The notes beneath the pieces were generated by a model. That model saw nothing but the letters and a program-made list of their open reading frames with translations, made no database searches and was not told the origin of the DNA. Both the position numbers and the translations under genes were made by a program. DNA of 64,000 nt from an uncultured Micavibrio sp. (GTDB lineage: Bacteria > Pseudomonadota > Alphaproteobacteria > Micavibrionales > UBA2020). Within the stretch, counting starts at the first letter, position 1, and each line of letters opens with the position of its first letter. Of this stretch, positions 1,312 to 45,309 are shown one piece after another. The DNA lies in NCBI GenBank assembly GCA_964575605.1, contig CAZNRN010000020.1:306-64305 (forward strand), given 5' to 3'.

Positions 1312-2937
1312 ATGCGCAGTTTCTTCTCTCCCAAAGCCGTTTCCCTCATGACAGCAGCCCTGCTGTTCGCCACCACCGCACATGGCGCCTGGGCCGCCAC
1401 GATCTCCGACAGCGGCGCGGCTGACCTGAAAAAACAGGTCGAGCAGGAAATGGCCTTCAGCGTCAACATGTCTAAGGTCACGGGCGCCGGCCTGACGATG
1501 AACGGCGACGTCACCGTCGTTCCCATGAAGGGCTATTACCAGGTCAAGGTGCCGAACCTTTCCTATTCTCACAGCTTCGCCAAACTCAACATCGGCACGC
1601 TGGTGATGAACGTGTCGCCCGGTGACCAGGGCCAGTACGAAATGAGCATCGCGGTGCCGAGCCCGCTAGTCGTGAGCGACAACAACGGCAAGCCCATGGT
1701 TGAATTCACGCTGGGCGAACAGCGCATGTCGGGCACCTGGTGGCCCAAATTCTCGTCCTTCACCCGCGTTGACGCCGAATACAGCGACGTCAAGGTGCGC
1801 ACGATGGCGGACACCGACAACATGACGGGCACCATTGCCAGCCTGAAAAGCACCATGAACCTGACGCAGAACGCCGACCAGACCTGGTCGGGCCCCACCG
1901 ATTTCCTCATCTCCGGCTTCAAGATGTCGGGCGGGGACAAATCGAAGCTTGATATCAACATCGAAAAAATCGGCGCCAAGGCTTCGGTCACCTCGATGAA
2001 CCTGCAATCCAAGAAAGAGCTGCAGGACAAGGTCGAAAAACTGCTGACCGACTCGCTGGCCAACCAGCAGCCCAACGCCGAACAGTCGCGCGCACTGGTA
2101 TCCGGCCTGCTGCAAAGCATCGAATCCTACATGGACGGCATGGGCAGCCATGTCGGCCTCACCAACCTCTCGCTGGTACTGACCCCCGACCCCAACGCGC
2201 CCGCGCGCCCCGACGGCACGAAGGAAGAGCCGCTCAACGTCAAGGTCGGCTCGCTCGAAAGCGGCTTCGACGTGACGGGCCTGAAGCAGCCCAAAGGCAC
2301 TGTCGCTTTCAAGATCAGCCTGATGGGCCTTGCGCTGTCGGATGTGGGCCTCGACGTGCCGGGCGTTGTCCCGACCGACACCAACCTCGAAATCACGCTT
2401 GAAAACCTGCCCATGAAGGAACTGGGCCAGGCGATCGGCACCGCGGTGACGCAGGGCGTGCAGGCCGCATCGCAAGCGGCATCCGCGACCGACCCGACGG
2501 AAAAACAGGCGCTGGACCAGCAAGCCAAGAGCCAGATCATGATGGCCGCAGCCTCCATCCCGATGCAGCTGGCGGCGGCAGGTTCGGTCGTCTCGGTCAA
2601 GAACACCTATGCCAAGGCGCCCGACATCACGTCCAAACTCGACGGCAGCTTCGCCGCCAACCCGGCCTCGCCCGTGATGGCGTCGGGCGCGATCACGCTG
2701 CTGCTGGTCGGCGTCGACGAGCTGCTGCAAAAGGTGCAGGGCATGGCACAGGCGCCGGGCGCGAACCCGACGCTGATGGCCTGGGTACAGGGCATCGCCG
2801 CGCTGCAAAAGCAAGGCGAACTGGGCAAGGCCGACGACGGCCGCAGCCAGCGCAGCTACAAGATCGTTGTCGGCCAAGACGGCAAGGTCATGCTGAACGG
2901 ACAGGATATGTTCGGCTCTATGGGTATGCCGCGCTAA
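1312..2937 (+). CDS. Secreted protein of unknown function
   Basis: The ORF-track entry 1234..2937 starts at TTG. The in-frame ATG at 1312 follows an AGGGGTG RBS and yields signal peptide MRSFFSPKAVSLMTAALLFATTAHGAWA. Composition is coding-like. No motif recognised. Confidence 0.6.
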   Translation: MRSFFSPKAVSLMTAALLFATTAHGAWAATISDSGAADLKKQVEQEMAFSVNMSKVTGAGLTMNGDVTVVPMKGYYQVKVPNLSYSHSFAKLNIGTLVMNVSPGDQGQYEMSIAVPSPLVVSDNNGKPMVEFTLGEQRMSGTWWPKFSSFTRVDAEYSDVKVRTMADTDNMTGTIASLKSTMNLTQNADQTWSGPTDFLISGFKMSGGDKSKLDINIEKIGAKASVTSMNLQSKKELQDKVEKLLTDSLANQQPNAEQSRALVSGLLQSIESYMDGMGSHVGLTNLSLVLTPDPNAPARPDGTKEEPLNVKVGSLESGFDVTGLKQPKGTVAFKISLMGLALSDVGLDVPGVVPTDTNLEITLENLPMKELGQAIGTAVTQGVQAASQAASATDPTEKQALDQQAKSQIMMAAASIPMQLAAAGSVVSVKNTYAKAPDITSKLDGSFAANPASPVMASGAITLLLVGVDELLQKVQGMAQAPGANPTLMAWVQGIAALQKQGELGKADDGRSQRSYKIVVGQDGKVMLNGQDMFGSMGMPR

Positions 2938-2983
2938 ACGCGGGGGTATGCCGCGCTAATCGATCCGGCTGAAAAATATCAGG

Positions 2984-3013
2984 AAAAGGGCGGCCGTTTG
3001 TGCCGCCCTTTTT
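2984..3013 (+). terminator. Rho-independent terminator after 1312..2937
   Basis: GGGCGGC-cgtttgt-GCCGCCC followed by TTTTT, with an A-run upstream. Confidence 0.75.
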
Positions 3014-5850: not shown

Positions 5851-6467
5851 TTTTCCAGCATTTTCTTGAACGACACCGCGCGATGGTTGGTGGCGTTCTT
5901 TTCTTCCTGCTCCATCTCGCCGTAGGTGCGGCTGTCGCCGTCGGGGATGAACATGGGGTCATAGCCGAAACCCTTGTCGCCGCGCGGCGGCCAGGTGACG
6001 GTACCATGCGCATGGCCTTCGACCACTTCATAATGGCCGTCCGGCCAGGCCAGCACGAGGCAGGACACGAAATGCGCCTTGAGCGTCGAGGGGTTGTCGC
6101 CCATTTCGCGGTGCGCGCGTTCCATGGCCATGTAGAAATCGCGGGGCTTGCCCTCTTCCTCCGCCCAGTCGGCGGAATAGACGCCGGGCGCGCCGTTCAG
6201 CGCGTCGATGCAAAGGCCGCTGTCGTCGGCCAGCGCCGGCTTGCCAGTGGCCTTGGCGACCGTCTGCGCCTTGATCAGCGCGTTCTCGATAAAGGTCGTG
6301 CCGGTTTCCGGCGGCGCCTCGACGCCGTAATCGGATGCGGCCGACAGTTTCTTGACGCGGTCGCCGAACAGCTCGCGCAGCTCTTTCAGCTTGCCCTTGT
6401 TATGCGTGGCGACGACCAGTTCGTCGCCGGTAAAGGGGCGCGGAGTGTCTTTGGGGGCGGGTTTCAT
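5841..6467 (-). CDS. rdgB: dITP/XTP pyrophosphatase RdgB (Ham1 family)
   Basis: LVVATHNKGKLKELRELF ... DDSGLCIDALNGAPGVYSA ... GFGYDPMFIP are Ham1/RdgB signature blocks. Confidence 0.9.
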   Translation of the reverse strand: MKPAPKDTPRPFTGDELVVATHNKGKLKELRELFGDRVKKLSAASDYGVEAPPETGTTFIENALIKAQTVAKATGKPALADDSGLCIDALNGAPGVYSADWAEEEGKPRDFYMAMERAHREMGDNPSTLKAHFVSCLVLAWPDGHYEVVEGHAHGTVTWPPRGDKGFGYDPMFIPDGDSRTYGEMEQEEKNATNHRAVSFKKMLEKCF

Positions 6468-6476
6468 GGCTGCCTT

Positions 6477-7577
6477 TTAAGGTACGGGGGGCTTGGGTTG
6501 CTGCGGCTGAGCGGCGGGCGCTGCCTTGCCGATATGCTCTTCGAGGAAGTCGATGATTTTCAGCGCGGCGGCGTCCTTGTCTTTCCAGCTTTTGGCCAGC
6601 TGCAGCGCATCAGCCGGTTTCGCGCCATAGGACAGGCAGAGGTCGAAGCCCTCGGCGGGCTTTTTCGACGAGCGCAGCGCGGAGAGAAGCATGCTGCTGT
6701 TTTCCGCCGTCACGTCGATGTTGCCGGTATCGAGCAATATCTTCACCGCGTTCAGGCTGCCGTTCAAAAGGCCATGGGCGATATCCTGCCTGTCGCCTTT
6801 CATGCCGAGGCCGAGCATCAGTTTCACCAGCCCGCCATTGTCGCTGCCGACGGCGGTGTAAAGCGCCTCGCCCGCGCTTTTGTCGTTCTGGGGCGTCGCG
6901 CCCTTGCTGACCAGGTATTCGGCGATGTCGTTATGGCCGTATTTCACCGCCTGCAGGAAGGGCGTCCAGAAACCTTCGGCGCCCTTGTTGATGTCGGCGC
7001 TTTTCACCTCGACCAGATGGCGGATCATCTTCATGTCGGGTTCGCGCGTCGAGATGGCGTGCAGCAGCGCCGCGTTGCCGTCGGCGCCGTGTTTCAGCAT
7101 CAGGTTGACTTTTTTCATGTCGCCTTCGTCCATGCCGAAATTCATGGCGGAGGGGAAGTAACCTTCGGGGCGCTGGTCGGCCGAGGTGTTGCAGGCCTTG
7201 ACCAGATATTCGGCCACGCGGTAATGGCCGTGCAGCATCGCGGTGTGATAGGCGGCGGTTGCGGGCGCGTGCAGCGTCCAGCCGCGCTCTTCTTCCGGCA
7301 CAGTCACCTTGAATTTTTCGCAGAGCGTCTGCATCGCCTGCAGGCGGCCGAACATCGCCGCGGTTTTCAGCACGTTGGTCGCGTTGACGCTTTTGATCGC
7401 GCCCTGGCGCCAGCCGTATTTTTCGTTGTCGATCGCCTCGATCGCGGCGTCGATGCGCCACTGTTTGCCCTTGGCCAGTTCCTGCACCAGCGCGGCTTCC
7501 TTTTTATAGACCGGCAGGTCTTTCAGGCGCGCAACCATATGCTTGTAACGGAGCGTTTCCTTGGCGGGCGTGGGCAT
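6477..7577 (-). CDS. Ankyrin-repeat protein with conserved N-terminal TLRYKHMVARLK module
   Basis: ANK-like repeats, e.g. TPFLQAVKYGHNDIAEYLVSKGATPQ and GDMKKVNLMLKHGADGNAALLHAI. The N-terminal ~50 aa are shared with 7704..8690. The C-terminus is a Pro/Gln-rich tail. Confidence 0.7.
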   Translation of the reverse strand: MPTPAKETLRYKHMVARLKDLPVYKKEAALVQELAKGKQWRIDAAIEAIDNEKYGWRQGAIKSVNATNVLKTAAMFGRLQAMQTLCEKFKVTVPEEERGWTLHAPATAAYHTAMLHGHYRVAEYLVKACNTSADQRPEGYFPSAMNFGMDEGDMKKVNLMLKHGADGNAALLHAISTREPDMKMIRHLVEVKSADINKGAEGFWTPFLQAVKYGHNDIAEYLVSKGATPQNDKSAGEALYTAVGSDNGGLVKLMLGLGMKGDRQDIAHGLLNGSLNAVKILLDTGNIDVTAENSSMLLSALRSSKKPAEGFDLCLSYGAKPADALQLAKSWKDKDAAALKIIDFLEEHIGKAAPAAQPQQPKPPVP

Positions 7578-7616
7578 GGCGGGAATCCCTTTTTTGATGC
7601 GTTCAAAGTTGCCCGC

Positions 7617-7645
7617 ATCCTACGCTCGGGGCGATATTATGTCAA
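7617..7645 (-). promoter_or_regulatory. Sigma-70-type promoter for 6477..7577 (TTGACA-N17-TAGGAT)
   Basis: Minus strand: TTGACA (7645..7640), 17-nt spacer, TAGGAT (7622..7617). The GATATTATGTCAA box is shared with the paralog upstream region. Confidence 0.5.
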
Positions 7646-7703
7646 TAAAAAACACGGCGCTCCGCTGTGCGAATAACCCTTTAATAACAATCGCTTGGCC
7701 TGA

Positions 7704-8690
7704 TTAGAGCGCGGGGCCCGTCGTTGTCGGCTTGGGCGCGGTGGCGGGCGGCGGGTTCTTGGGCTCGTAACCCACGACCTTCATGTCCTGCTTTTGCGCT
7801 TCAAGGTACAGAGCTTCCTTCTGCTCGTCCGTGCCATAGACGCGGATCGAGGTCCAGCCGCGGGTGCGCGACGCAGCGACGATGGCGGCGGCGTCGAAAT
7901 TGTCGAAGCCCTGCTGCTGGTTGCGCGTGCCGATAAACTCGCGGTTCTCGGCCTGTTCGCTCCAGCCGAAGGTGCGGCCGTTTTTCAGCGTGAATTCGAT
8001 GCCCTGCGACGAAATCTCGGCCTCTTTCAGCGCGGATTTCAACTGCGGCGCGACGGCGGGCACTTTCCACGCGTCGATGAAAACCTTTTCGCCGTCAAGC
8101 TCGAGGTCGGTTTTGAACTGCACCGGCACGACAGGCACGGCAGCGGGCTGCGCCGCGGGCTCGGACAATTTAGTTTCAAGGTGCGCGGCCGCTTTCTGCG
8201 CGCCCAGCGCCACGGCCTGTTTATGCAGGGTTTCCGCATCGGCGCCGGTTTTCAGCAGGAAGTTCAGCTTGCGCACGTCGCCTTCCGCCATTGCTTTCGA
8301 GGTGGCCTCGGGCGCTTTCGCAGCCGTTGCGCCGCGGTCGTAGAGCGAGCGCGCGGTTTTGTAATTGCCGTTGCGCGCGGCGATGTCGAAGGCCGTCTGC
8401 ACCGGCTGTTCGCCGTGGATCAGGCCCAGCGTATCGACGATTTTTTCAATCGTCTGCTGGCGCGCGTGGATGGCGGTGTTCTTGAGGATATTTTCGATGT
8501 CGAAGGTGCGCCAGTCGGGCGGGCTGACCGCTTCCAGCGCGGCGTCGATGCGCCATTGCTGGCCGTCTGCGATTTCCTCCAGCAGCGCGGCTTCTTTTTT
8601 GTAGGACGGAAGGCCTTTGAGGCGCGCGACCATGTGCTTGTAGCGCAGGGTATCTTTCATGTCCCTCGCGGTGGACGGTTTCGTTGCCAT
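7704..8690 (-). CDS. Paralogous TLRYKHMVARLK-module protein with degenerate ANK repeats and a distinct C-terminal domain
   Basis: The N-terminus DTLRYKHMVARLKGLPSYKKEAALLEEIADGQQWRIDAALEA matches 6477..7577. There are weak ANK repeats (TAFDIAARNGNYKTARSLYDRGA; GDVRKLNFLLKTGADAE). The C-terminal GWTSIRVYGTDEQKEALYLEAQKQDMKVVGYEP is reminiscent of LPD7-type domains (tentative). Confidence 0.55.
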   Translation of the reverse strand: MATKPSTARDMKDTLRYKHMVARLKGLPSYKKEAALLEEIADGQQWRIDAALEAVSPPDWRTFDIENILKNTAIHARQQTIEKIVDTLGLIHGEQPVQTAFDIAARNGNYKTARSLYDRGATAAKAPEATSKAMAEGDVRKLNFLLKTGADAETLHKQAVALGAQKAAAHLETKLSEPAAQPAAVPVVPVQFKTDLELDGEKVFIDAWKVPAVAPQLKSALKEAEISSQGIEFTLKNGRTFGWSEQAENREFIGTRNQQQGFDNFDAAAIVAASRTRGWTSIRVYGTDEQKEALYLEAQKQDMKVVGYEPKNPPPATAPKPTTTGPAL

Positions 8691-8722
8691 GGCTGCTTCC
8701 CCTAAGAATTTGAATTATATCA

Positions 8723-8752
8723 ATTTTAAACCAAGCTGTGATATTATGTCAA
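8723..8752 (-). promoter_or_regulatory. Sigma-70-type promoter for 7704..8690 (TTGACA-N18-TAAAAT)
   Basis: Minus strand: TTGACA (8752..8747) and TAAAAT (8728..8723), in the same GATATTATGTCAA context as at 7633-7645. Confidence 0.5.
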
Positions 8753-8804
8753 ATATTAAAAGCCACCCGTGAAGGCGCGTTTATGTACCTCACAACGCCT
8801 TGAT

Positions 8805-35413: not shown

Positions 35414-38215
35414 GTGTCCCAAGCCCTTGCCCCTCAAGCGGCGCAAAAGCGCCTGTTGGTCCCGAAAGCCCCCGTGCTGGTGCTGGCGGGGCACAGCCTG
35501 TACTGCCTGACGCTGGACGGGGAGCTGAAACGCGTCGACGAGGCCGAGGCCAGGGGCATCGCCCAGCGCAACATGCCCATCGTCTGCAACGCGCCGCAGG
35601 TGGCCGCCCGCTTGAGGCTGGAGCGCCTGCCCGCCTATGACGTCCTTGAATTGTTTGCTTTCGTGAACCCCGGCACCTTCTGCGTGCCGACGCCCCGCGG
35701 GCTGAGCAAAGCCTTGGGATTGTTCGAACCCGAAACGCCCGAAGACCACTGCACGGGGCTGCGCGACGCCATCCGGCACCTGCTGGCCGACCTTGGCGCG
35801 GCGGGACGGGTGGAGAAAAGCGACCCCGCAGGCCTCGCCGCCATGATGGGGCTGATGGGCGGCGCGAACGACGAACCGCAATCACCCGCCGGCTGGCCCT
35901 GGACGCCCAGTGTGCTGGCAGCCCTCGGGCGGACGGAAACGCCGCCGACCCGCGCCGAGATGAAACTGGCCGCCAAGGTCTGGGACAAGCTGCCCGAATG
36001 GTCGGTGCATGCGCCCGAACCGGCCCCCGGCCATGTGGGCGTGGCCGATGCGGAAGTTGAAGAACGCCTCGCGCAATTACTACTGCGCCAGAAAAAGGAA
36101 GACCGCCCGCAGCAGCGCGATTACGCGCGCACGCTGGCCAGCGCCTTTGCACCCTGTAATGAAGAAGGCGAAACGCATGTGGTACTGGCCGAGGCCGGCA
36201 CGGGCACCGGCAAGACGTTAGGATATTTATCGCCCGCAACCGTCTGGGCGGAGAAAAACGGCGGGCCGGTCTGGGTCTCGACCTATACGCGCAACCTGCA
36301 GCGGCAGGTGGATGCGGAGCTTGAAAAGCTTTACGACGACCCCGTGACCAAGGCGCGCAAGGTGGTGACACGCAAGGGGCGCGAAAACTATCTTTGCCTG
36401 TTGAACCTTGAAGACGCGGCGCAAAGCCCGGGCGTCGCGGCCAGCGATATCAACGCGACCGCCTTCGGCCTGATGGCGCGCTGGGCGGCGATGACCGACG
36501 ACGGCGACCTGATGGGCAAGGATTTCCCCGGCTGGCTGGCGGGGCTGATGGGCTGGCAGCGCATGGCCGCCTTTGCCGACAAGCGCGGCGAATGCATCTA
36601 TACCGCCTGCCCGCATTTCAACAAATGCTTCGTCGAGAAAAGCATCCGCAAAGCCAAGCGCGCCGATATCGTGATCGCGAACCACGCGCTGGTGATGCAC
36701 CAGACGGCGGTGACAGGGCCGGAAGACGTGCTGCCCGGCCGCTATATTTTCGACGAAGGGCATCATTTATTCGAGGCCGCCGACAGCGCCTTCGACGCGC
36801 AGCTGAACGGCCAGTGGACAAGCGATCTGCGCCGCTGGCTGCTGGGCACCGAAACGGGGCAGAAGACCCGCGCGCGCGGCTTGAAACGCCGTATCGAGGA
36901 CATGATCGCGGGCGAGGAAGAAAACATCGCGCATGTCGAGGCGATACAGGAGGCCGCGCGCGCCCTGCCCGGCCCGCAATGGCGGCAGCGTATGGGCGAG
37001 GGAGAGCCGCGCGGCGTGACGGAACAGTTTTTGCTGCTCTGCCGCCAGCAGGTCTATGCCCGCACGAAAGACCACGGCGGTTATTATTCGCTGGAAACCG
37101 CGGTGCAGCCCGCGATACCGGGATTGCTGGAGGCAGCCAGCGCGCTGGCCGCGAAACTGGGCGATTTGCAAAAGCCGATGATGGCGCTGATCCGAGCGCT
37201 ACAGAAAAAGCTGGAAGACGAGGCCGAAACGCTGGATACCTCGCAGCGCGAACGCATCACCTTTATCCGCAACAGCCTCTACCGCCGCGCGCATTACGAA
37301 CTGGGCGGCTGGATAGAGATGCTGAAGGCGCTGAAAGACCCGCAGCCGGAAAACTGCGTCGACTGGCTGGAGGTTTCCCGCGTCGACGGGAAGGATTACG
37401 ACGCCGGTTTCTACCGTTATTACGTCGACCCCGCGCGCGTTTTCGCCGAACAGCTGAAACCCCATGCGCATGGCGTCGTCATCACTTCCGCAACCCTGCG
37501 CGACGCCTCGGACGAAGATGCCGAAGGCTGGAAAAGCCCGAAATCGCGCACGGGGTTTGAAGTATTGTCGAACCCCGGCCATGCGAATACATTCGCCGTC
37601 GCCTCGCCCTTTAACTATAAGGAACAGACCCGCGTGCTGGTCGTGGGCGATGTGGCGAAGGATAACCCGGGCGAAGTGGCCGCCGCATATCGCGAGTTGT
37701 TCCGCGCGTCACAGGGCGGCGCGCTCGGCATTTTCACCGCCGTGCAGCGCCTGCGCTCCGTCCATGACAAAATCATCCAGCCGCTGGAAAACGAAGGCAT
37801 CCACCTGTATGCCCAGCACGTCGACCCGCTGGATACCGGCACGCTGATCGATATTTTCCGCGAGGAAGAAAACGCCTGCCTGCTGGGCACCGATGCGACC
37901 CGCGACGGAATCGACGTGCCGGGGCGTTCGCTGCGATTAGTGGTTTACGACCGCGTACCCTGGCCGCGCCCGACCATTTTGCACAAGGCGCGCCGCCAGC
38001 ATTTCGGCAAGAGCCTCGACGACATGCTGACACGCTTCAAGCTGAAGCAGGCCTACGGCCGCCTGATCCGCCGCAGCGATGATAAGGGCGTTTTCGTGAT
38101 GCTCGACGGCGCCCTGCCCTCGCGCCTCCTCACCGCCTTCCCCGAAGGCGTGGAGGTGCAGCGCATCGGCCTTAAAGAAGCGATTGCGGCGGTAAAAGAT
38201 TTCCTGAAGGACTAA
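35414..38215 (+). CDS. ATP-dependent DNA helicase, DinG/Rad3-like (933 aa)
   Basis: Walker A LAEAGTGTGKTLGYL, DEGHHL (DEAH-type box), a Cys cluster (CLLNLED ... CIYTACPHFNKC) consistent with an Fe-S domain, and C-terminal helicase motifs. GTG start as in the ORF track. Confidence 0.8.
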   Translation: MSQALAPQAAQKRLLVPKAPVLVLAGHSLYCLTLDGELKRVDEAEARGIAQRNMPIVCNAPQVAARLRLERLPAYDVLELFAFVNPGTFCVPTPRGLSKALGLFEPETPEDHCTGLRDAIRHLLADLGAAGRVEKSDPAGLAAMMGLMGGANDEPQSPAGWPWTPSVLAALGRTETPPTRAEMKLAAKVWDKLPEWSVHAPEPAPGHVGVADAEVEERLAQLLLRQKKEDRPQQRDYARTLASAFAPCNEEGETHVVLAEAGTGTGKTLGYLSPATVWAEKNGGPVWVSTYTRNLQRQVDAELEKLYDDPVTKARKVVTRKGRENYLCLLNLEDAAQSPGVAASDINATAFGLMARWAAMTDDGDLMGKDFPGWLAGLMGWQRMAAFADKRGECIYTACPHFNKCFVEKSIRKAKRADIVIANHALVMHQTAVTGPEDVLPGRYIFDEGHHLFEAADSAFDAQLNGQWTSDLRRWLLGTETGQKTRARGLKRRIEDMIAGEEENIAHVEAIQEAARALPGPQWRQRMGEGEPRGVTEQFLLLCRQQVYARTKDHGGYYSLETAVQPAIPGLLEAASALAAKLGDLQKPMMALIRALQKKLEDEAETLDTSQRERITFIRNSLYRRAHYELGGWIEMLKALKDPQPENCVDWLEVSRVDGKDYDAGFYRYYVDPARVFAEQLKPHAHGVVITSATLRDASDEDAEGWKSPKSRTGFEVLSNPGHANTFAVASPFNYKEQTRVLVVGDVAKDNPGEVAAAYRELFRASQGGALGIFTAVQRLRSVHDKIIQPLENEGIHLYAQHVDPLDTGTLIDIFREEENACLLGTDATRDGIDVPGRSLRLVVYDRVPWPRPTILHKARRQHFGKSLDDMLTRFKLKQAYGRLIRRSDDKGVFVMLDGALPSRLLTAFPEGVEVQRIGLKEAIAAVKDFLKD

Positions 38216-38234
38216 TCAAATCCCCAAATAGAAA

Positions 38235-38252
38235 CTCCGGCGAAGGCCGGGG
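38235..38252. terminator. Bidirectional hairpin between convergent genes
   Basis: CTCCGGC-GAAG-GCCGGGG (7-bp stem with one G-U pair) lies between the helicase stop (38215) and the DUF1476 stop (38283). Confidence 0.5.
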
Positions 38253-38282
38253 TCTCAAGTCGTTGCAGACTATTCGGGTTAC

Positions 38283-38603
38283 TTACCCCTGCATCACGGC
38301 CTTCTTGGCCGCGGCAAGATGCACGTTGTATTCGTTTTCCAGCTGGTGCTCGGACATTTCGATGCCCTTACCGGAAAGGTCTTTCGCGACCTTGCGCAGC
38401 ACGTCCTTGATGCCGGGTTCGTCGAAATCGGCGTCCAGCACTTCGGCGGCGTAGGTTTCGACATCGGCGCCGGTCTTGCCGAGCTTGCCCGCGGCCCAGG
38501 CGCCAAAGAGCTTCACGGCTTTCGCCTGCACTTTGAACTGCAGTTCCTGGTCGTGCTTGAACTTGTTTTCAAAAGCCTTTTCGCGATCGTCGAATCCCAT
38601 CAT
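38283..38603 (-). CDS. DUF1476 protein (F1-ATPase inhibitor zeta-subunit family)
   Basis: MMGFDDREKAFENKFKHDQELQFKVQAKAVKLFGAWAAGKLGKTG ... DFDEPG closely parallels the Paracoccus zeta subunit as I recall it. Start at 38603 rather than 38642. Confidence 0.8.
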   Translation of the reverse strand: MMGFDDREKAFENKFKHDQELQFKVQAKAVKLFGAWAAGKLGKTGADVETYAAEVLDADFDEPGIKDVLRKVAKDLSGKGIEMSEHQLENEYNVHLAAAKKAVMQG

Positions 38604-38681
38604 CCACTCCGTTATTACGTTATATTGACTATTGTACCCCAAGCACCTAGATAACTACAAACACCAAAGAGATATTTCAAG

Positions 38682-39335
38682 ATGGCTGATAAACAAGAGA
38701 AAAAACCGCCGAATTTCTGGTACGAAGGCGACACCAGCCTGCACGATTTACCGGAAATCGCCACGGGCGTGAAGAAACTGGTGAAGGCGCATCCGGAACT
38801 GAAAGCCGCGATGAAGCGCATCGGCACCCTGCCATGGAAAAAACAGCCCGACGGTTTCGAAGGGCTGGTCTGCATCATCCTCGGCCAGCAGGTGTCGGTG
38901 GCGGCCGCCGCGCATATGGCCGCGCGCCTGCGCGACGCCATCCCCGAAATCACGCCGAAACGCTTCATGAAACTGGATGACGACAAATTGCGCGCCATCG
39001 GTTTTTCGGGACAGAAAATCAATTACAGCCGCAACCTGGCCGAGCAGATCATCGGCAAGAAATTCAATCCGGCCGACCTTGTGGACGCGCCCGAGGAAGA
39101 GGCGATGGAAATGCATACAGCGCTCAAGGGAATCGGTCCCTGGAGCGCCGAGATTTACCTGATGTTCTGCCTGGGCCGCGGCGACGTCTGGCCGGCCGCC
39201 GACCTTGGCCTGCAGAACGGGCTGCAGCGCATGCGGGGCCTTAAAACCCGCCCCGATACCAAGGAAACAAGGGTTTTGGGCGAGATTTTTGCGCCCTACC
39301 GCTCGGCCGCCTCCCTTATTGTCTGGCGGGCGTGA
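38682..39335 (+). CDS. DNA-3-methyladenine glycosylase II-like (HhH-GPD, AlkA type)
   Basis: ILGQQVSVAAA ... LKGIGPWSAEIYLMFCLGRGDVWPAADLGL contains the HhH motif plus the catalytic Asp context. Confidence 0.8.
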   Translation: MADKQEKKPPNFWYEGDTSLHDLPEIATGVKKLVKAHPELKAAMKRIGTLPWKKQPDGFEGLVCIILGQQVSVAAAAHMAARLRDAIPEITPKRFMKLDDDKLRAIGFSGQKINYSRNLAEQIIGKKFNPADLVDAPEEEAMEMHTALKGIGPWSAEIYLMFCLGRGDVWPAADLGLQNGLQRMRGLKTRPDTKETRVLGEIFAPYRSAASLIVWRA

Positions 39336-39353
39336 CTGGGGTATAAACCCGTC

Positions 39354-39959
39354 ATGGCCACAAAACGCAAACTGACCCCGCAGCAGATCAAGCGCCCCTC
39401 CCGCGACGAGGCGGAGGCCGCGATCGCAACGCTTATCCGCTGGATCGGCGAGAACCCCGAGCGCGAAGGATTGAGGGAAACGCCCCGCCGCGTCGTGCGC
39501 GCGTTTGAAGAATATTTTGCAGGCTATGCGATGAAACCCGAAGAAGTGCTGGACCGGTACTTCAAGGAAGACATGGGCGGCTATACCGACCCTGTGCTGA
39601 TCCGCAATATCGAGGTTGAATCGCGCTGCGAACACCACATGGCGCCCTTTATCGGGCAGGCGCATGTCGCCTATATCCCGAACGGCCGCGTGCTGGGCCT
39701 CTCGAAAATCGCACGCGTCGTCGATATGTATGCGCGCCGCATGCAGGTGCAGGAACGCCTGACATCCGAAATCGCCAATACCCTGAATCAGTACGTGAAG
39801 CCCAAGGGCGTCGCCGTGCTGATCGAGGCCGAGCATTTCTGCATGAAGGTCCGCGGCGTCAAGAAAGACCACTGCAAAACCGTCACCACGCGCTTCCTCG
39901 GCGCTTACAAGCGCGATGCCGCTTTGCGCGAGGAATTCTTCGCTTCCATCAAAGGCTGA
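39354..39959 (+). CDS. folE: GTP cyclohydrolase I
   Basis: [14 protein letters not shown] ... CEHHMAPF ... RMQVQERLT are FolE signatures. Confidence 0.93.
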
Positions 39960-41323
39960 GCGGTAACCGCCGCCGCTTTCTGCATCGACGCCGTGACCTC
40001 CGCCAGGTTCGCGAATTTTTCGGCGAATATCTTGCCGTCGCAATTGCCGGTCATCAGCACGTCCGTCAGGCGCTCCATGTCTTTCGCCGGGATTTTGCCG
40101 TCATAGGCGTTCACGAGGATGCCCGCGACATCGGCTGCGAAATCGCGCAGGCGTCCGGTGCCGAAGGTGACATCCATGAACTTGCCGCCGTTATTCACCG
40201 CCGCATCGCGCGATTTCAGGTAGAGGTCTGCGTCCTGCTTGGGGTTGCCCGTGAAGCCATAGTCTTTCAGCAGCGCGTCGAAATCATCCGCCGCCTTGCC
40301 GTCCGGTACCAGCGCCGCGGTCAGCAGTATCGCCATCACGGGCTGGTCGTAACCGCTGTCCGCGCCGCGTACTTCCATGCGCTTGCCGATGGCTTTGCCC
40401 GCTTCGTCGCGCAGGTTGCAGATTTTCACGTCGTTATAGAGGAAGGTTTCGGCCAGTTCATAGTTTGACTGCGTGCCCAGCCCCTGCTCCACCAGTTTCG
40501 CATAGGTGATGCGGTTTTCTTTCGACGCGGGGATCAGGCCGCCCTCGGCGTTATAGGCGAAGTGCATCGGCGCGTTGAAGACCGCTTCGATGTGGTTGCG
40601 GATGAATTCATCGCCGGTTGACGATTTCAGGAATGCGGGCGAGACGCCGCCGGCCTCGCCATAACCGAGGTAATATTTACCGCGCGGCAAATAATCGAGT
40701 TTTTTGTCTTCATCCATGATGTAGTTGGACGAGGCGTTGCAGGACGCCATCAGCAAAGGCGTCAGCGCATAGGCGCGCTTCACCATGCGAAACATCTGCT
40801 CGGGGTCTTCGGGGCTGAAACTGGTTTGCACAGATGAGGTGAGCATCGGCAGGCGCAGGGTGTTTTCGTCGAAAATTTCCTGCATGGCCTTTAACGACAC
40901 CTGCAAGCGCTCGCGGCTGACCATGTTGCCGAGCGCTTCTTCGCGCGTCGTCGTGGGCACGATGGAGAACTGCGGGCGGGTGAAGCCTTCGTCATTCGCG
41001 GCCTTGTCGAACACCGCGATATCTTTTTTCACCGCACGCAGCAGCGCCGCGACATCGTCGTTTTGTAAGGCGGGACTGGCGTATTCGATGACGCCCGCAG
41101 GTTCCAGCTGCGCGTCGTAGCCCATGTCCTTCATTTTTTTTTGCAGCGCCTGCATTTCGAGGGCGGTGGGCAGCGCGGGTTTCGATAGGCCCGGTTTCAC
41201 CAGCGGCATTTCAACCTCGGCGCCAATTTTTCCGGTGTACCGTTTGGGCGGCGGCGCATAGAGCGGCAGCGCGTCTTCAAACGACGAAATCTTTTTCAGG
41301 TTGGTTTTTTGCACGTCCGTCAT
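39905..41323 (-). CDS. Glutamate--cysteine-ligase-family (GCS2 / plant-type-like) carboxylate-amine ligase, paralog 1
   Basis: [47 protein letters not shown] and [10 protein letters not shown] parallel the plant/alpha-type GCL blocks IGTEHE, T.TVQVNLDFS.E.DM..K.R..L.L.P...A.FANSP and LEMRGADGG. Its 3' end overlaps folE convergently by 55 nt. Confidence 0.62.
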
Positions 41324-41405
41324 GACGGTTAATCCTTATGATGCCCTGCATCGGGGCGAATGATTTACGGGTAGTTGGGGGTGGGCGGTTATGAACCGCA
41401 AATGA

Positions 41406-41426
41406 CAAAAACTGGCTTAGTGCCAG
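41406..41426 (-). promoter_or_regulatory. Hairpin + T5 overlapping the mini-ORF-1 stop codon (candidate attenuator)
   Basis: Minus strand: CTGGC-ACTAA-GCCAG then TTTTTG. The 5' arm is formed by the last two sense codons (TGG CAC) and the TAA is in the loop. Confidence 0.35.
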
Positions 41427-41479
41427 TGATGATGCTGGACGTGATGGAAGGCTGCGATGTACTGCACGCGGTTTGTCAT
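41417..41479 (-). CDS. Candidate 20-codon leader/precursor mini-ORF 1 (MTNRVQYIAAFHHVQHHHWH)
   Basis: Hand-translated codon by codon. The ATG at 41479 lies 31 nt after a TTGACAGAAT box and has no SD. It is homologous in its 5' half to mini-ORF 2 and ends 93 nt upstream of ligase paralog 1. Confidence 0.45.
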   Translation of the reverse strand: MTNRVQYIAAFHHVQHHHWH

Positions 41480-41516
41480 GGCGTCTACTGTCGCCGATTC
41501 TGGCGCATTCTGTCAA

Positions 41517-41552
41517 TGAAAGAAAAATACGGTGCCCGGAAAGGCACGGTAT
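41517..41552 (-). terminator. Rho-independent terminator after ligase paralog 2
   Basis: Minus strand: AUACCGUGCC-uuucc-GGGCACCGUAU (9 bp with one C-C mismatch) followed by UUUUCUUUC. It starts 10 nt after the stop at 41562. Confidence 0.75.
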
Positions 41553-41561
41553 TTCATAGGC

Positions 41562-42968
41562 TTACATCGACGGTTTTCTTTGGCGCGCCGCCACCAGCTG
41601 CGCGGGTGAGCTTGCGTTTTTCTGCAGCGCCGCCGTCACATCGGACAATCGCGGATAGTTCTCGGCATGGCGTTTCGCATCGCAGTCGCAGGTCAGCAGG
41701 ATATGGCAGAGCGTGGACAGTTCGGCCCTCACCTGTTTATCGGCGCCGTAATGGTTCACCATCAGCCCAGCGACATCCGCCGCGAAATCACGCAGGGAGC
41801 CGGTGCCGAAGGGCACATCCATGAAGCGCCCGCCATGATCGACGACGGCAGCGCGGGAGGATTTCAGCAGCGCCGCATCCTCGCGCGGGTTGTTGGTGAA
41901 GCCGTAGTCTTTCAGCAGCGCGTCAAACTGCTCCGCCGTCTTGCCGTCGGGCAGCAGGGCGGCCGCGAGCAATAACACGCTGGCCGGCTGGTGCAGGCCT
42001 GAATCGGCGGGGCGCAGTTCGATGCGCTTGCCCACCGTGTTGCCCTCGGCATCGCGCAGGTTGCAAATTTTGATATCGTTATAGAGAAAGCTTTCGGCAA
42101 GCTCGTAATTCGCCTGCGTGTTCATGCCCTTTTCAGCCAGCTTCGCGAAGGTCAGCACATTGCCCTTGGTCGAACGCACCATGTTGCCTGCGGGGTCGAA
42201 GGCGAAGAACATCGGCGCGTCGAAAACTTCGCGGATATGGTTATCCACCAGCTCCGCGCCGTTGGTTGATTTGAGGAAGGCCTCCGATATGCCCCCCGAT
42301 GCGCCGTAAACCTCGTAGTATTTCGAGCGCACATGCGCATCCTGCCGGGTATTGTCGTTGCAGGCGAAGCCCGTGCCGCTGTTCATCGCCGCAATCACCA
42401 GCGGCACCAGCATGTAACCGCGGCGCGCCATGTTGAACATCTCGTCGTTGTTGCGGGGCGAAAGGCTTGCCTGCACGCCCGTCGTCAGCAGCGGGATATT
42501 GGCGGTTTCGGGGGTATAGACCTCGTTAATCACCGCCAGCGCCGCCTCCAGCCTTTCGCGGCCGACCTTGTTTTCCAGCGCTTCCTCGCGCGTGGTGGTG
42601 GGCAGGATGGAAAAGGGCGCGCGGGTATAGCCGTGTTTGGCGGCTTCCGCCTCGAACAGCGCGATATCGGCCTTTGCCTGCGCGATCAGCTTCGGCGTAT
42701 CGGCGACCGGCACCGGCGGGCTTGCGTATTCAAGCACGCCTGCGGCTTCCAGCTGCGCGTCATGGCCTTTTTTCTTTAAATCGGCATGCATCTGCAGCAT
42801 TTCGGCGGCGGTCGGGATCTGCGGCTTTGTCGCGCCCGGTTTGTACAGCGCCATTTCAACCTCCAGCCCTATCTTGCCCTGATAATCGGGCGGGGGCGCG
42901 GCGTAGAGGCTGCGCGCTTCTTCGATGGAATTGATAAGACGTGTCCGGTCTTTCCTGACGTCGGTCAT
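41562..42968 (-). CDS. Glutamate--cysteine-ligase-family carboxylate-amine ligase, paralog 2
   Basis: Collinear with paralog 1, with roughly half the residues identical by eye. Blocks: KIGLEVEM, LTTGVQASLSPRNNDEMFNMARRGYMLVPLVIAAMNS, RIELRPADSG. Confidence 0.62.
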   Translation of the reverse strand: MTDVRKDRTRLINSIEEARSLYAAPPPDYQGKIGLEVEMALYKPGATKPQIPTAAEMLQMHADLKKKGHDAQLEAAGVLEYASPPVPVADTPKLIAQAKADIALFEAEAAKHGYTRAPFSILPTTTREEALENKVGRERLEAALAVINEVYTPETANIPLLTTGVQASLSPRNNDEMFNMARRGYMLVPLVIAAMNSGTGFACNDNTRQDAHVRSKYYEVYGASGGISEAFLKSTNGAELVDNHIREVFDAPMFFAFDPAGNMVRSTKGNVLTFAKLAEKGMNTQANYELAESFLYNDIKICNLRDAEGNTVGKRIELRPADSGLHQPASVLLLAAALLPDGKTAEQFDALLKDYGFTNNPREDAALLKSSRAAVVDHGGRFMDVPFGTGSLRDFAADVAGLMVNHYGADKQVRAELSTLCHILLTCDCDAKRHAENYPRLSDVTAALQKNASSPAQLVAARQRKPSM

Positions 42969-43032
42969 GGGTAATCTGCCTTGGGCCTTCGCGTTTGCGC
43001 GGCCTGATAAATGTTACGGTGATGTGGGCTGG

Positions 43033-43049
43033 GAGACGCTTAACGTCTC
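43033..43049. promoter_or_regulatory. Perfect palindrome GAGACG-CTTAA-CGTCTC in the leader of ligase paralog 2
   Basis: 6-bp arms at 43033-43038 and 43044-43049, between mini-ORF 2 and the ligase start. Confidence 0.35.
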
Positions 43050-43061
43050 AGTACAATTAAT

Positions 43062-43078
43062 GGCGGGCTTTATCCGCC
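43062..43078 (-). promoter_or_regulatory. Hairpin overlapping the mini-ORF-2 stop codon
   Basis: Minus strand: GGCGG-AUAAAGC-CCGCC. The 5' arm is the last two sense codons (GGC GGA) and the TAA is in the loop. It is followed by AUUAAUU. Confidence 0.3.
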
Positions 43079-43132
43079 AAAATAGGAAAAGCTATAAAAA
43101 TAGGGTGCAGCGATGTAGGTCATCGTCGTCAT
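43070..43132 (-). CDS. Candidate 20-codon leader/precursor mini-ORF 2 (MTTMTYIAAPYFYSFSYFGG)
   Basis: Hand-translated codon by codon. The ATG at 43132 lies 31 nt after the TTGACAGAAT box and about 8 nt after the -10, with no SD. It ends 101 nt upstream of ligase paralog 2. Confidence 0.45.
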   Translation of the reverse strand: MTTMTYIAAPYFYSFSYFGG

Positions 43133-43140
43133 GGCGGTGA

Positions 43141-43169
43141 TTCTTACAGAATACGGGCGATTCTGTCAA
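43141..43169 (-). promoter_or_regulatory. Sigma-70-type promoter TTGACA-N17-TAAGAA(T) with embedded 7-bp inverted repeat
   Basis: Minus strand: TTGACA (43169..43164) and TAAGAA (43146..43141). ACAGAAT-N7-ATTCTGT (43146-43166) spans the spacer, an operator-like position. Confidence 0.5.
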
Positions 43170-43192
43170 GTCGCGCGCCCCGCGCCGGTTAT

Positions 43193-43950
43193 TTAGGGCA
43201 TAAACTGCTCTTTAATCATGCGCTCGTCGAGGTTCATTTCAGGGTCGAAGAGCAGCGAGAGCGTGATGTTCTTGTCCATCCAGACCTCGACCGTTTCGAC
43301 ATCCCTGATCTCGGTGAAATCGGCGACGGCAGACACGGGGCGGTTGTGGGGTTCGAGGATATTGATTTTCAGCATGGTCGATTGCGGCACCAGCGCACCC
43401 CGCCAGCGGCGCGGGCGGAAAGCGCTGATGGGCGTCAGCGCGAGAATATCGGCGCCCAAGGGAATGATGGGGCCATGCGCCGAAAGGTTATAGGCGGTAG
43501 AGCCCGCAGGCGTCGAAAAGATGATGCCGTCACAGATCAGTTCTTCCAATCGCACGACGCCGTCGATTGAAATGCGGAGTTTCGCGGCCTGTCGCGTTTC
43601 GCGGAGCAGCGAGACTTCGTTCACGGCCAGCGCGTCGCGGATGCGGCCGGTCATGGTGGTGACGCGCATGCAGAGCGGATGCAGCTCCACCGTCTGCGCG
43701 CGGCCGAGGCGCTCGATCAGCCCCTTTTCACGGTATTCGTTCAGCAAAAAGCCGACCGAGCCGCGGTTCATGCCAAAGACGGGCTTTTTATGCCGGAAAC
43801 TTTCGTGCAGCGCGCGCAGCATGGAACCGTCGCCGCCCAGCGCCACGACGGCGTCGGCCTCTTCCAGAGACACCTCGCCATAGGCCTCGATCAGGCGTTT
43901 GCGCGCGTCCTGCGCCTGCGGTGTTTCGGCTGAAAAGAAATGCGCTTTCA

Positions 43951-43951
<1 letters not shown>
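43193..43951 (-). CDS. nadK: NAD kinase
   Basis: The GGDGSMLRA motif; 252 aa. Its start overlaps the glmM stop by 1 nt (TGATG). Confidence 0.9.

Positions 43952-45309
<1,358 letters not shown>

Follow-up and report, generated by a model that had tools for sequence, protein, structure and literature searches.

Candidate amino-acid-sensing leader peptides upstream of tandem glutamate-cysteine ligase-fold genes in an uncultured Micavibrio

An uncultured Micavibrio sp. carries, on a 64 kb stretch of contig CAZNRN010000020.1 that we refer to as the window, two adjacent genes for carboxylate-amine ligases with a glutamate-cysteine ligase (GCL) fold, each preceded by its own promoter and by a mini-ORF of 20 codons. 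From comparison with related genomes, we consider it likely that each of these modules regulates its ligase in cis, through a leader peptide that senses amino-acid supply by ribosome stalling in the manner of an attenuator. The coding elements of the two modules are:

Mini-ORF 2, 43070..43132, minus strand: candidate Phe/Tyr leader peptide, MTTMTYIAAPYFYSFSYFGG and stop, 20 codons
Ligase 2, 41562..42968, minus strand: 468 aa, GCL-fold carboxylate-amine ligase, Phe/Tyr-leader subfamily
Mini-ORF 1, 41417..41479, minus strand: candidate His leader peptide, MTNRVQYIAAFHHVQHHHWH and stop, 20 codons
Ligase 1, 39905..41323, minus strand: 472 aa, GCL-fold carboxylate-amine ligase, His-leader subfamily

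Module 2 (promoter, mini-ORF, ligase 2) comes first, followed by a terminator and then by module 1 (promoter, mini-ORF, ligase 1). A preliminary description of the window had reported two paralogous ligases and, hidden in front of them, a His/Trp-rich and a Tyr/Phe-rich mini-ORF of 20 codons. The coordinates, lengths and paralogy of the ligases (52% identity over 458 residues) are borne out here, as are both mini-ORFs on translation. Six of the last 10 codons of mini-ORF 1 specify His, and six of the last 10 of mini-ORF 2 specify Phe or Tyr. Against a background of 3945 small ORFs, drawn from the window and from all loci, a content of at least four His, at least six Phe/Tyr or at least four Met in the last 10 residues was confined to ligase-linked ORFs.

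A scan of species-representative genomes returned 33 loci, approximately 20 of which share the tandem order NAD kinase, ligase 2, ligase 1, and approximately 25 related metagenome-assembled genomes were compared. All of the relatives come from metagenomes, and transcription starts are predicted from sequence throughout. Inspection of the regions upstream of homologous ligases, a check proposed in the preliminary description, revealed the mini-ORFs in nearly every ortholog. All 24 ligase-1 orthologs follow an ORF of 16–21 codons with three to six His that ends HHW[HRQL]-stop, while 22 of 24 ligase-2-type loci have an ORF of 16–20 codons ending [FY][FY].[YF].YFG[GA]-stop. The two exceptions are divergent: L025 has lost the stop codon, giving a degenerate ORF of 31 codons, and L026 lacks such an ORF. 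The equal length of the two mini-ORFs, to which attention had been drawn, is real in the window but specific to this genome, given the range of 16–21 codons in the orthologs.

The reading frame is intact in 46/46 modules, with every indel or length difference a multiple of three, and synonymous CAT/CAC and TAT/TAC changes are present among the mini-ORFs. The ratio of nonsynonymous to synonymous changes (pN/pS) in module 1 is 0.75 without the last four codons and 0.13 within them; the corresponding values for module 2 are 0.51 and 0.27, with 0.49 overall. Codon-position entropy in module 1 is atypical of coding sequence. The last residue varies, being Gly, Ala, Cys or absent (lost in L001) in module 2 and H/R/Q/L in module 1, where the last codon can be CAC, CAT, CGC, CAG or CUA and the sole fixed position is its first base, a paired nucleotide in the stem of a stop-codon hairpin (H1, described below). 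The mini-ORFs, argued at the outset to be under selection, keep their frame, position and codon class in approximately 25 genomes. As judged from these comparisons, selection maintains the hairpin in the RNA, the open frame and the class of codon, and not a defined peptide. Because these three are kept while the peptide drifts, a regulatory ORF is favoured over a ligase substrate.

A role as substrate was the second of two readings in the preliminary description. Stated fully, the mini-ORFs would encode precursor or substrate peptides, similar to ribosomally synthesized and post-translationally modified peptides (RiPPs) or Pup-like tags, that are modified by the adjacent ligase, with H1 acting as a leaky terminator. 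The conserved order of peptide gene, hairpin and enzyme gene, with one peptide type for each ligase subfamily, would fit this reading; so would the Gly-Gly or Gly-Ala ending of module 2 peptides and the retention of the motifs I-A/S and VFF.S.AYF. However, no Asp, Glu or Lys is conserved across the orthologous mini-ORF peptides, whose sole universal carboxylate and amine are their termini. The C-terminal residue changes, or vanishes in L001, while the RNA stem co-varies, and the N-terminal half of module 1 is near-neutral, as its pN/pS of 0.75 indicates. Pup itself ends Gly-Gly-Gln/Glu, whereas window-type peptides end GG, GA, WH or WR. A literature search for a GCS2/carboxylate-amine ligase paired with a precursor or leader peptide found nothing relevant. 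We therefore rate modification by the ligase as improbable, and the absence of a protease or exporter nearby, described below, points the same way.

Each mini-ORF lies immediately downstream of a candidate promoter:

Module 2 promoter, 43140..43169, minus strand: TTGACA (43169..43164), 18-nt spacer, AAGAAT (43145..43140), 7 nt, ATG
Module 1 promoter, 41487..41516, minus strand: TTGACA (41516..41511), 18-nt spacer, GACAGT (41492..41487), 7 nt, ATG

In a consensus scan, the module 2 promoter matched 10 of 12 positions and had a TG preceding the −10 box. The gap from TTGACA to ATG is 31 nt in both modules, exactly as first described, which puts the ATG 37 nt after the first base of the box. Only two copies of the box TTGACAGAAT are present in the 64 kb window (41516 and 43169), one for each mini-ORF. 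This spacing is a general feature: the distance from TTGAC to ATG is 35–37 nt in 24/24 module 1 orthologs and 37–40 nt in 22/22 of module 2. A −10-like hexamer lies 7 nt upstream of the ATG, and the orthologs of module 1 have better versions of it (CATAGT, CATATT, CATTAT) than the window does, so that the original caveat about a poor −10 box in module 1 stands for this genome. No Shine-Dalgarno sequence was found upstream of the mini-ORF ATGs in the window modules. On this promoter geometry, both transcripts are predicted to be leaderless or nearly so.

Two further observations concern the promoters. The box TTGACAGAAT was considered as the motif of a wider regulon and rejected, as the exact box is present only at the two modules and matches with one mismatch belong to unrelated genes. 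The module 2 promoter contains a perfect inverted repeat, ACAGAAT-N7-ATTCTGT (43146..43166, minus strand), and because this spans the −35 box and the spacer it could be an operator. The palindrome is retained only in the closest relative, L011, and module 1 has a direct repeat instead, CAGAAT-N4-CAGAAT.

Downstream, each mini-ORF ends within a hairpin that is followed by a structured spacer:

H1 of module 2, 43061..43079, minus strand: UGGCGG-AUAAAGC-CCGCCA, UAA stop codon in the loop, U-rich tail
H1 of module 1, 41411..41427, minus strand: ACUGGC-ACUAA-GCCAGU, UAA stop codon in the loop, then UUUUUGUCAUUU
Module 2 spacer, 42969..43060, minus strand: U-rich tail, hairpin H2 (43049..43033), C-rich/G-poor tract (43032..43005), hairpin H3 (43004..42984), weak ribosome-binding site AAGG
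Module 1 spacer, 41324..41410, minus strand: U-rich tail, H2 (41399..41385, GCGGUU-CAU-AACCGC), C-rich tract (41384..41358), H3 (41357..41343), ribosome-binding site AAGGA (41337..41333)

The location of both stop codons in hairpin loops had been recognized from the outset, and a scan flagged both hairpins as terminator-like. The H1 stem is invariant in 24/24 module 1 orthologs and is preserved in module 2 by compensatory changes (GGCGG/CCGCC, GGCG/CGCC, GGCUG/CAGCC). A stop codon in the loop of a stem of at least 5 bp was found for 17 of 21 candidates, compared with 22% of control small ORFs. The tail of H1 has 5–9 U per 12 nt in all modules, and with such a tail H1 could serve either as a weak intrinsic terminator or to make the polymerase pause. 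RNAalifold recovered H1 alone from the MAFFT alignments of the leaders; since indels blur these alignments, H2 and H3 rest on folds of individual sequences and reading by eye. The arms of H2 in module 1 vary from G:C to A:U among orthologs. C exceeds G in 46/46 spacers (24/24 for module 1 and 22/22 for module 2), with C/G ratios of 1.3–1.6 compared to 1.02 in coding sequence and a mean of 1.61 in module 2 orthologs; such C-rich, G-poor spacers would suit Rho loading. A search of Rfam with window positions 38000..45000 (E ≤ 1) yielded no match, including to His_leader, Phe_leader or Trp_leader.

These RNA features raise the possibility that the ORFs are accidental and the region a structured, riboswitch-like 5′ untranslated RNA, which would account for the invariance of H1, the conservation of H2 and H3 and a codon-position entropy in module 1 that is not coding-like. 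It would leave unexplained the fixed distance from promoter to ATG, the frame that is intact in 46/46 modules with indels only in multiples of three, the synonymous CAT/CAC and TAT/TAC changes and the Shine-Dalgarno sequence in front of the mini-ORF at the remote locus L034, and there is no Rfam match; we regard it as extremely unlikely.

One additional complementarity was noted in module 1 (window 41406..41479): the opening 8 nt of the transcript (AUGACAAA) could pair with UUUGUCAU immediately 3′ of H1. Equivalent pairs exist in other clades (AAAACGG:CCGUUUU, AAACGAC:GUCGUUU, AUGACGA:UCGUCAU and AUGACAA:UUGUCAU). A helix of this kind, with compensatory changes, is restricted to some clades and does not generalize (mean z −0.4 to −0.7). 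Its role might be to mask the 5′ end or to stabilize a short RNA.

We also investigated relatives with less than 50% ligase identity, inspecting their contexts protein by protein in 17 clades; a word-index profile search with remote members gave eight proteins. A small upstream ORF rich in one amino acid, or in a related group, was present in 12 of the 17 clades sampled:

Trp-type: L030, ending VWRNWA-stop; L031–L033, ending VWRLWA-stop
Trp-type: L034, MTSVTTSRIWWSWRWR-stop (ending IWWSWRWR-stop), with a Shine-Dalgarno sequence in front
Trp-type: L037, MKTMTRTSWHNWRWR-stop (ending SWHNWRWR-stop), with a terminator after H1
Trp-type: L042, ending SRWQTSSWRS-stop
Met-type: L035, MDKNTNMMMMMKSPSRR-stop (MMMMM)
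Met-type: L036, ending SAMMMRMMSGRE-stop (AMMMRMM)
Met-type, weaker assignment with two Met codons each: L029, ending QAMRMRG-stop; L040, ending KAMLMRGGRG-stop; L044, ending QAAMRMTTGRN-stop
Phe/Tyr-type: L047, MINFAAAFTVFFGSAYFWR-stop, with the Phe-rich part FTVFFGSAYFWR-stop

L035 is particularly informative. A strong terminator (AACCGCC-GCAAA-GGCGGUU, then U8) follows its mini-ORF, and the 5′ arm of this terminator can pair instead with the GGCGGU of the last two sense codons to make an antiterminator. Read from its sequence, this is a classic attenuator layout, in which a ribosome stalled at the Met codons would leave the antiterminator free. Both this layout and homopolymer-like cores such as MMMMM count against a peptide substrate. 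The hairpin of L047 (CUGGC-GCUA-GCCAG) is that of H1 in module 1, and the corresponding ligase, P0153, is remote (profile E = 1.3e-40). L044 repeats the layout of the window, with H1, H2, a C-rich tract, H3 and a ribosome-binding site. Leader class is common to closely related ligases, and ligase 2 groups in one clade with orthologs that all lie behind a Phe/Tyr mini-ORF. Deeper in a neighbour-joining tree, the branches do not separate cleanly according to leader class. No leader was found upstream of the ligase in L026, of P0133 (L041) or of P0157 (L045), which is adjacent to rsmE, and none that was clear upstream of P0128 (L038) or P0129 (L039).

L031 differs from L032 and L033 in having an extra 200–250 nt or so (approximately 5925..6170) between the Trp-type mini-ORF and the ligase. 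Its leader of 323 nt folds as a long, near-perfect hairpin, with a minimum free energy of approximately −100 kcal/mol for the whole leader, and the insertion has the appearance of a small, palindromic mobile element that inserted into the leader.

Leader-peptide attenuators are textbook regulators of amino-acid biosynthetic operons. In a module of the kind proposed here, the progress of a ribosome through a cluster of codons for one amino acid would report the charging of the matching tRNA. The sensing codons would be those in the last few positions, His in module 1 and Phe plus Tyr in module 2. Because these codons lie on or adjoin the 5′ arm of H1, a ribosome stalled at them would melt the hairpin: waiting at HH in module 1 or at YF in module 2, it would cover the 5′ arm, H1 and its U-rich tail would be prevented from acting, and transcription or expression would run on into the ligase gene. 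With plentiful amino acid, the ribosome would finish and depart, H1 would form and the leader would stay in its ‘off’ state. In the window, the switch itself might be either H1 together with its U-rich tail or Rho-dependent termination on the C-rich spacer. We infer that the mini-ORFs are translated, that H1 is the deciding structure and, by analogy with L035 and known systems, that starvation switches the ligase on; our confidence in an H1-based mechanism is lower than in a cis-acting leader peptide as such.

Alternatively, the mini-ORFs could encode arrest peptides, like TnaC or SpeFL, in which the nascent peptide senses a free metabolite (here a substrate or product of the ligase) and stops the finished peptide from being released at the stop codon; held over H1, the ribosome would then prevent Rho-dependent termination on the C-rich spacer. 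The layout is similar, as TnaC and SpeFL are also short upstream ORFs at whose end a held ribosome decides transcription, and a C-rich untranslated spacer is present here too. Conservation is strongest in the last four codons (pN/pS 0.13–0.27), leaders of the His, Phe and Trp types share a recurrent W-R/H-stop ending, the hairpin apex always holds the stop codon, C exceeds G in 46/46 spacers as in a Rho loading site and the window has no classic intrinsic antiterminator that we could find. However, TnaC and SpeFL sense their metabolite without matching codon enrichment, whereas the window leaders carry codon clusters, and runs of one codon class (MMMMM, HHHH, WW.W.W) are unlike known arrest peptides, which to our knowledge are not enriched in the amino acid they sense. 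In addition, the final position of the peptide varies, a plain intrinsic terminator/antiterminator is present at L035 and the C-rich tract begins approximately 35–40 nt past the stop codon, out of reach of a parked ribosome. We consider an arrest mechanism unlikely.

Returning to the codon-sensing leader, a well-studied counterpart is available for comparison. In S. meliloti the transcript of the trp attenuator starts at the ATG of trpL, making it leaderless, and encodes a peptide of 14 aa with the N-terminus MANTQNIS (PMC7298713; PMC6614838); the Agrobacterium trpL peptide is MNIVSKNIANWWWSSFLRP (PMC7298713). Orthologs of the window mini-ORFs begin MANTNNIAAP.., MANNKNIAAP.. or MTNRVKNISAL.., and because N-termini such as MANTNNIA.. 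and MTNRVKNISAL.. resemble the trpL peptide, the window elements look like trpL-type leaders with the Trp codons exchanged for His or Phe/Tyr. Both systems are alphaproteobacterial, have their regulatory codons near the C-terminus and place the stop codon at the apex of the first stem-loop. The absence of a leader is established for trpL, whereas for the window modules it is predicted only from promoter geometry. There are also clear differences. The sensing codons in the window are His or Phe/Tyr rather than Trp (Trp leaders precede other members of the ligase family), a GCL-fold ligase takes the place of trpE(G) downstream, the spacer is longer (approximately 95–100 nt) and we could not find a clear SL2/SL3 antiterminator/terminator pair in the window.

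The resemblance to trpL raises a further alternative, in which the short terminated RNA or the peptide acts mainly in trans, like rnTrpL/peTrpL, and control of the ligase is secondary. Termination at H1 and its U-rich tail would yield an RNA of approximately 75–80 nt, and the invariance of H1 at the nucleotide level across very divergent ligases goes beyond what a hairpin needs and fits a base-pairing seed; in S. meliloti, target pairing is through the apex of SL1 (PMC6614838). Against this, no targets are known, and the leaders have long been closely tied to a single enzyme family, with leader class and ligase clade in agreement, which points to a role in cis first. A primary function in trans is, in our judgement, very unlikely.

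Other leader systems share some of the same features. The E. coli hisL peptide, MTRVQFKHHHHHHHPD, resembles MTNRVQY..HHHWH, and the Phe-rich pheL leader resembles MTNAKHIAVFFFSYAYF. As in the window, these are short ORFs with clusters of His or Phe codons before a regulated gene. They differ in that the window elements have no match to Rfam His_leader or Phe_leader, are predicted to be leaderless, mix Phe with Tyr and have fewer His codons; the genes regulated here are not biosynthetic operons, and no terminator/antiterminator pair was identified. The leaderless polycysteine small ORFs of mycobacteria (the ‘Cys ribulon’) are proven Cys attenuators, in which stalling relieves repression (bioRxiv 10.1101/834739). 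Like the window modules, they have their sensing codons at the 3′ end and a spacer of approximately 100 nt (bioRxiv 10.1101/834739). The mycobacterial mechanism is translational attenuation, in which base pairing links the Cys codon tract to the Shine-Dalgarno sequence of the following gene, whereas modelling of a stalled ribosome in the window showed no consistent change in exposure.

Several observations weigh against an amino-acid-sensing attenuator. Constrained folding revealed no antiterminator alternative to H1 in the window. With a modelled stalled ribosome, the ligase ribosome-binding site did not become consistently more or less exposed: the mean unpaired probability of the Shine-Dalgarno sequence in free RNA, with a ribosome at the sensing codons and with one at the stop codon was 0.44, 0.45 and 0.46 for module 1 and 0.38, 0.40 and 0.38 for module 2. 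H1 is short (6 bp) and the tail of some orthologs is not U-rich, while the −10 box of module 1 is weak in the window. Some module 1 orthologs have only three His codons. The conserved I-A/S motif represents more peptide conservation than a pure codon sensor requires, and the VFF.S.AYF of L047 resembles the module 2 peptide even though the ligases are remotely related. The UGG (Trp) codon and part of the His and Phe codons sit inside the invariant stem, so constraint on the RNA and constraint on the codons are inseparable there. Finally, an enzyme that is induced by starvation and consumes the scarce amino acid is counter-intuitive. The first reading in the preliminary description, that of ribosome-stalling attenuators tied to His or Tyr/Phe supply, with ligases of a specificity other than Cys, has strong comparative support in the conserved frame, position and codon class, the remote Trp, Met and Phe leaders, the attenuator at L035 and the trpL layout, and loses from the lack of an antiterminator in the window.

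The ligases themselves are unusual. Their matches to Pfam GCS2 are weak (18.4 and 16.1 bits, under the gathering score of 21), neither matched any NCBIfam model and ligase 1 had no sequence match among PDB chains. Ligase 1 was modelled with AlphaFold2 from 34 homologs (mean pLDDT 93.6). The best match of the model to a solved structure was the plant glutamate-cysteine ligase 2GWC (TM-score 0.72–0.78, 17% identity), followed by YbdK (TM-score 0.53–0.73) and then by the E. coli and yeast GCLs, with PafA (TM-score approximately 0.32, ranks 13–14) and glutamine synthetases as distant matches. The earlier assignment to the glutamate-cysteine ligases therefore holds for the fold and for the metal/ATP motifs, which are common to the window ligases, the plant/alphaproteobacterial GCL (2GWC) and E. 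coli YbdK, but not at the level of curated family models (Pfam GCS2, NCBIfam). At 14–17% identity to 2GWC and YbdK and below the GCS2 gathering score, the window ligases form a separate and tiny family, with 127 proteins at E ≤ 0.001 in a profile search of 1.84 billion cluster representatives. The named sources are nearly all uncultured Alphaproteobacteria, many labelled Micavibrio. PafA, the ligase for Pup, is a member of this fold superfamily, which would suit peptide substrates, but the structural match is weak (TM-score 0.32).

The metal-binding G-x-E-x-E and R-x-E-x-R residues are invariant, and several Glu/Arg are fixed even across the remote family; because G-x-E-x-E and these Glu/Arg residues are invariant to that depth, the window ligases are probably active ATP-dependent ligases. 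Since leader class matches ligase clade, each of them probably handles the amino acid that its leader senses. The leaders point to His, Phe/Tyr, Trp or Met rather than to Cys, and have no cluster of Cys or Glu codons. The N-terminus MT[DE]V.. of the ligases (ATGACNGAYGT) is kept even in remote members, the start ATGAC is common to mini-ORFs and ligases, and the ligase start CGTCATGACG is palindromic.

In three Trp-type loci, L031–L033, the ligase gene is followed directly on its 3′ side by a gene for a member of the Pfam FGase family (N-formylglutamate amidohydrolase, E = 7.8e-29; 7182..8131), and L038 has one in the same position (2202..2993). This neighbour hints at an N-acyl- or gamma-glutamyl-type product of the ligase. 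Elsewhere the next gene encodes GDPD (L025, L035), an MFS transporter (L042) or a LivG-like ABC ATPase (L047). P0157, a remote member of 533 aa at L045 (1127..1200), lies directly after rsmE and has an ordinary TTGACA-N17-TATAAT promoter and a Shine-Dalgarno sequence without a mini-ORF; within the family, it may represent the housekeeping branch.

These ligases are found in predatory, Micavibrio-like Alphaproteobacteria. Among the pathways absent from Micavibrio aeruginosavorus ARL-13 are those for His, Met and Trp, and this strain also lacks every known transporter of amino acids, peptides and amines (PMC3189940). ARL-13, the sole sequenced Micavibrio according to that report, was not among the 33 ligase loci returned. 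A high-affinity capture or salvage step induced by starvation is an attractive, if speculative, function. We put forward tentatively, as a possibility with the balance of probability against it, that the ligases are an unrecognized ATP-dependent family in which each member is dedicated to one costly amino acid and induced on its shortage, as part of a capture, trapping or salvage route; for example, the amino acid could be ligated to glutamate and the bond later undone by the adjacent enzyme of the N-formylglutamate-amidohydrolase type. If so, leader class would predict the substrate of every ligase subfamily, providing a testable prediction for each subfamily of these functionally uncharacterized enzymes, and would point to an unrecognized amino-acid economy in uncultured predatory bacteria. 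The leaders, for their part, would represent a leaderless alphaproteobacterial attenuator that has been re-coded for His, Phe/Tyr, Trp or Met and has spread with a rare GCL-fold branch, in a compact design with the stop codon at the hairpin apex and the sensing codons on its 5′ arm.

The remaining features of the locus are:

glmM, 43951..45309, minus strand
NAD kinase (nadK), 43193..43951, minus strand; followed in gene order by module 2 and module 1
Intrinsic terminator between the modules, 41521..41547 (41547..41532 in the scan), minus strand: GUGCC-UUUCC-GGGCAC, then CGUAUUUUUCUUU

The terminator had already been singled out as a strong one separating the two modules, and the scan confirmed it at 41547..41532. 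The genes around the ligases are glmM, nadK, folE and a HhH-GPD repair gene. Pfam and NCBIfam family matches revealed no protease, exporter or immunity gene among the neighbours, and a setting of nadK, glmM and folE is a further point against modified peptides. The 3′ ends of ligase 1 and of the convergent folE (39354..39959, plus strand) overlap by 55 nt (window 39905..39959), and an ORF of 431 aa antisense to folE (38748..40043, minus strand) has no family match and is probably spurious. Further away, at window 7300..8760 (minus strand), there is another tandem pair of paralogous genes, approximately 1.1 kb apart, each of which follows a TTGACATAAT promoter box (7645..7636 and 8752..8743); their products start MPTPAKETLRYKHMVARLKDLPVYKKEAALVQELAKGKQWRIDAAIEAI.. 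and MATKPSTARDMKDTLRYKHMVARLKGLPSYKKEAALLEEIADGQQWRIDAALEAV...

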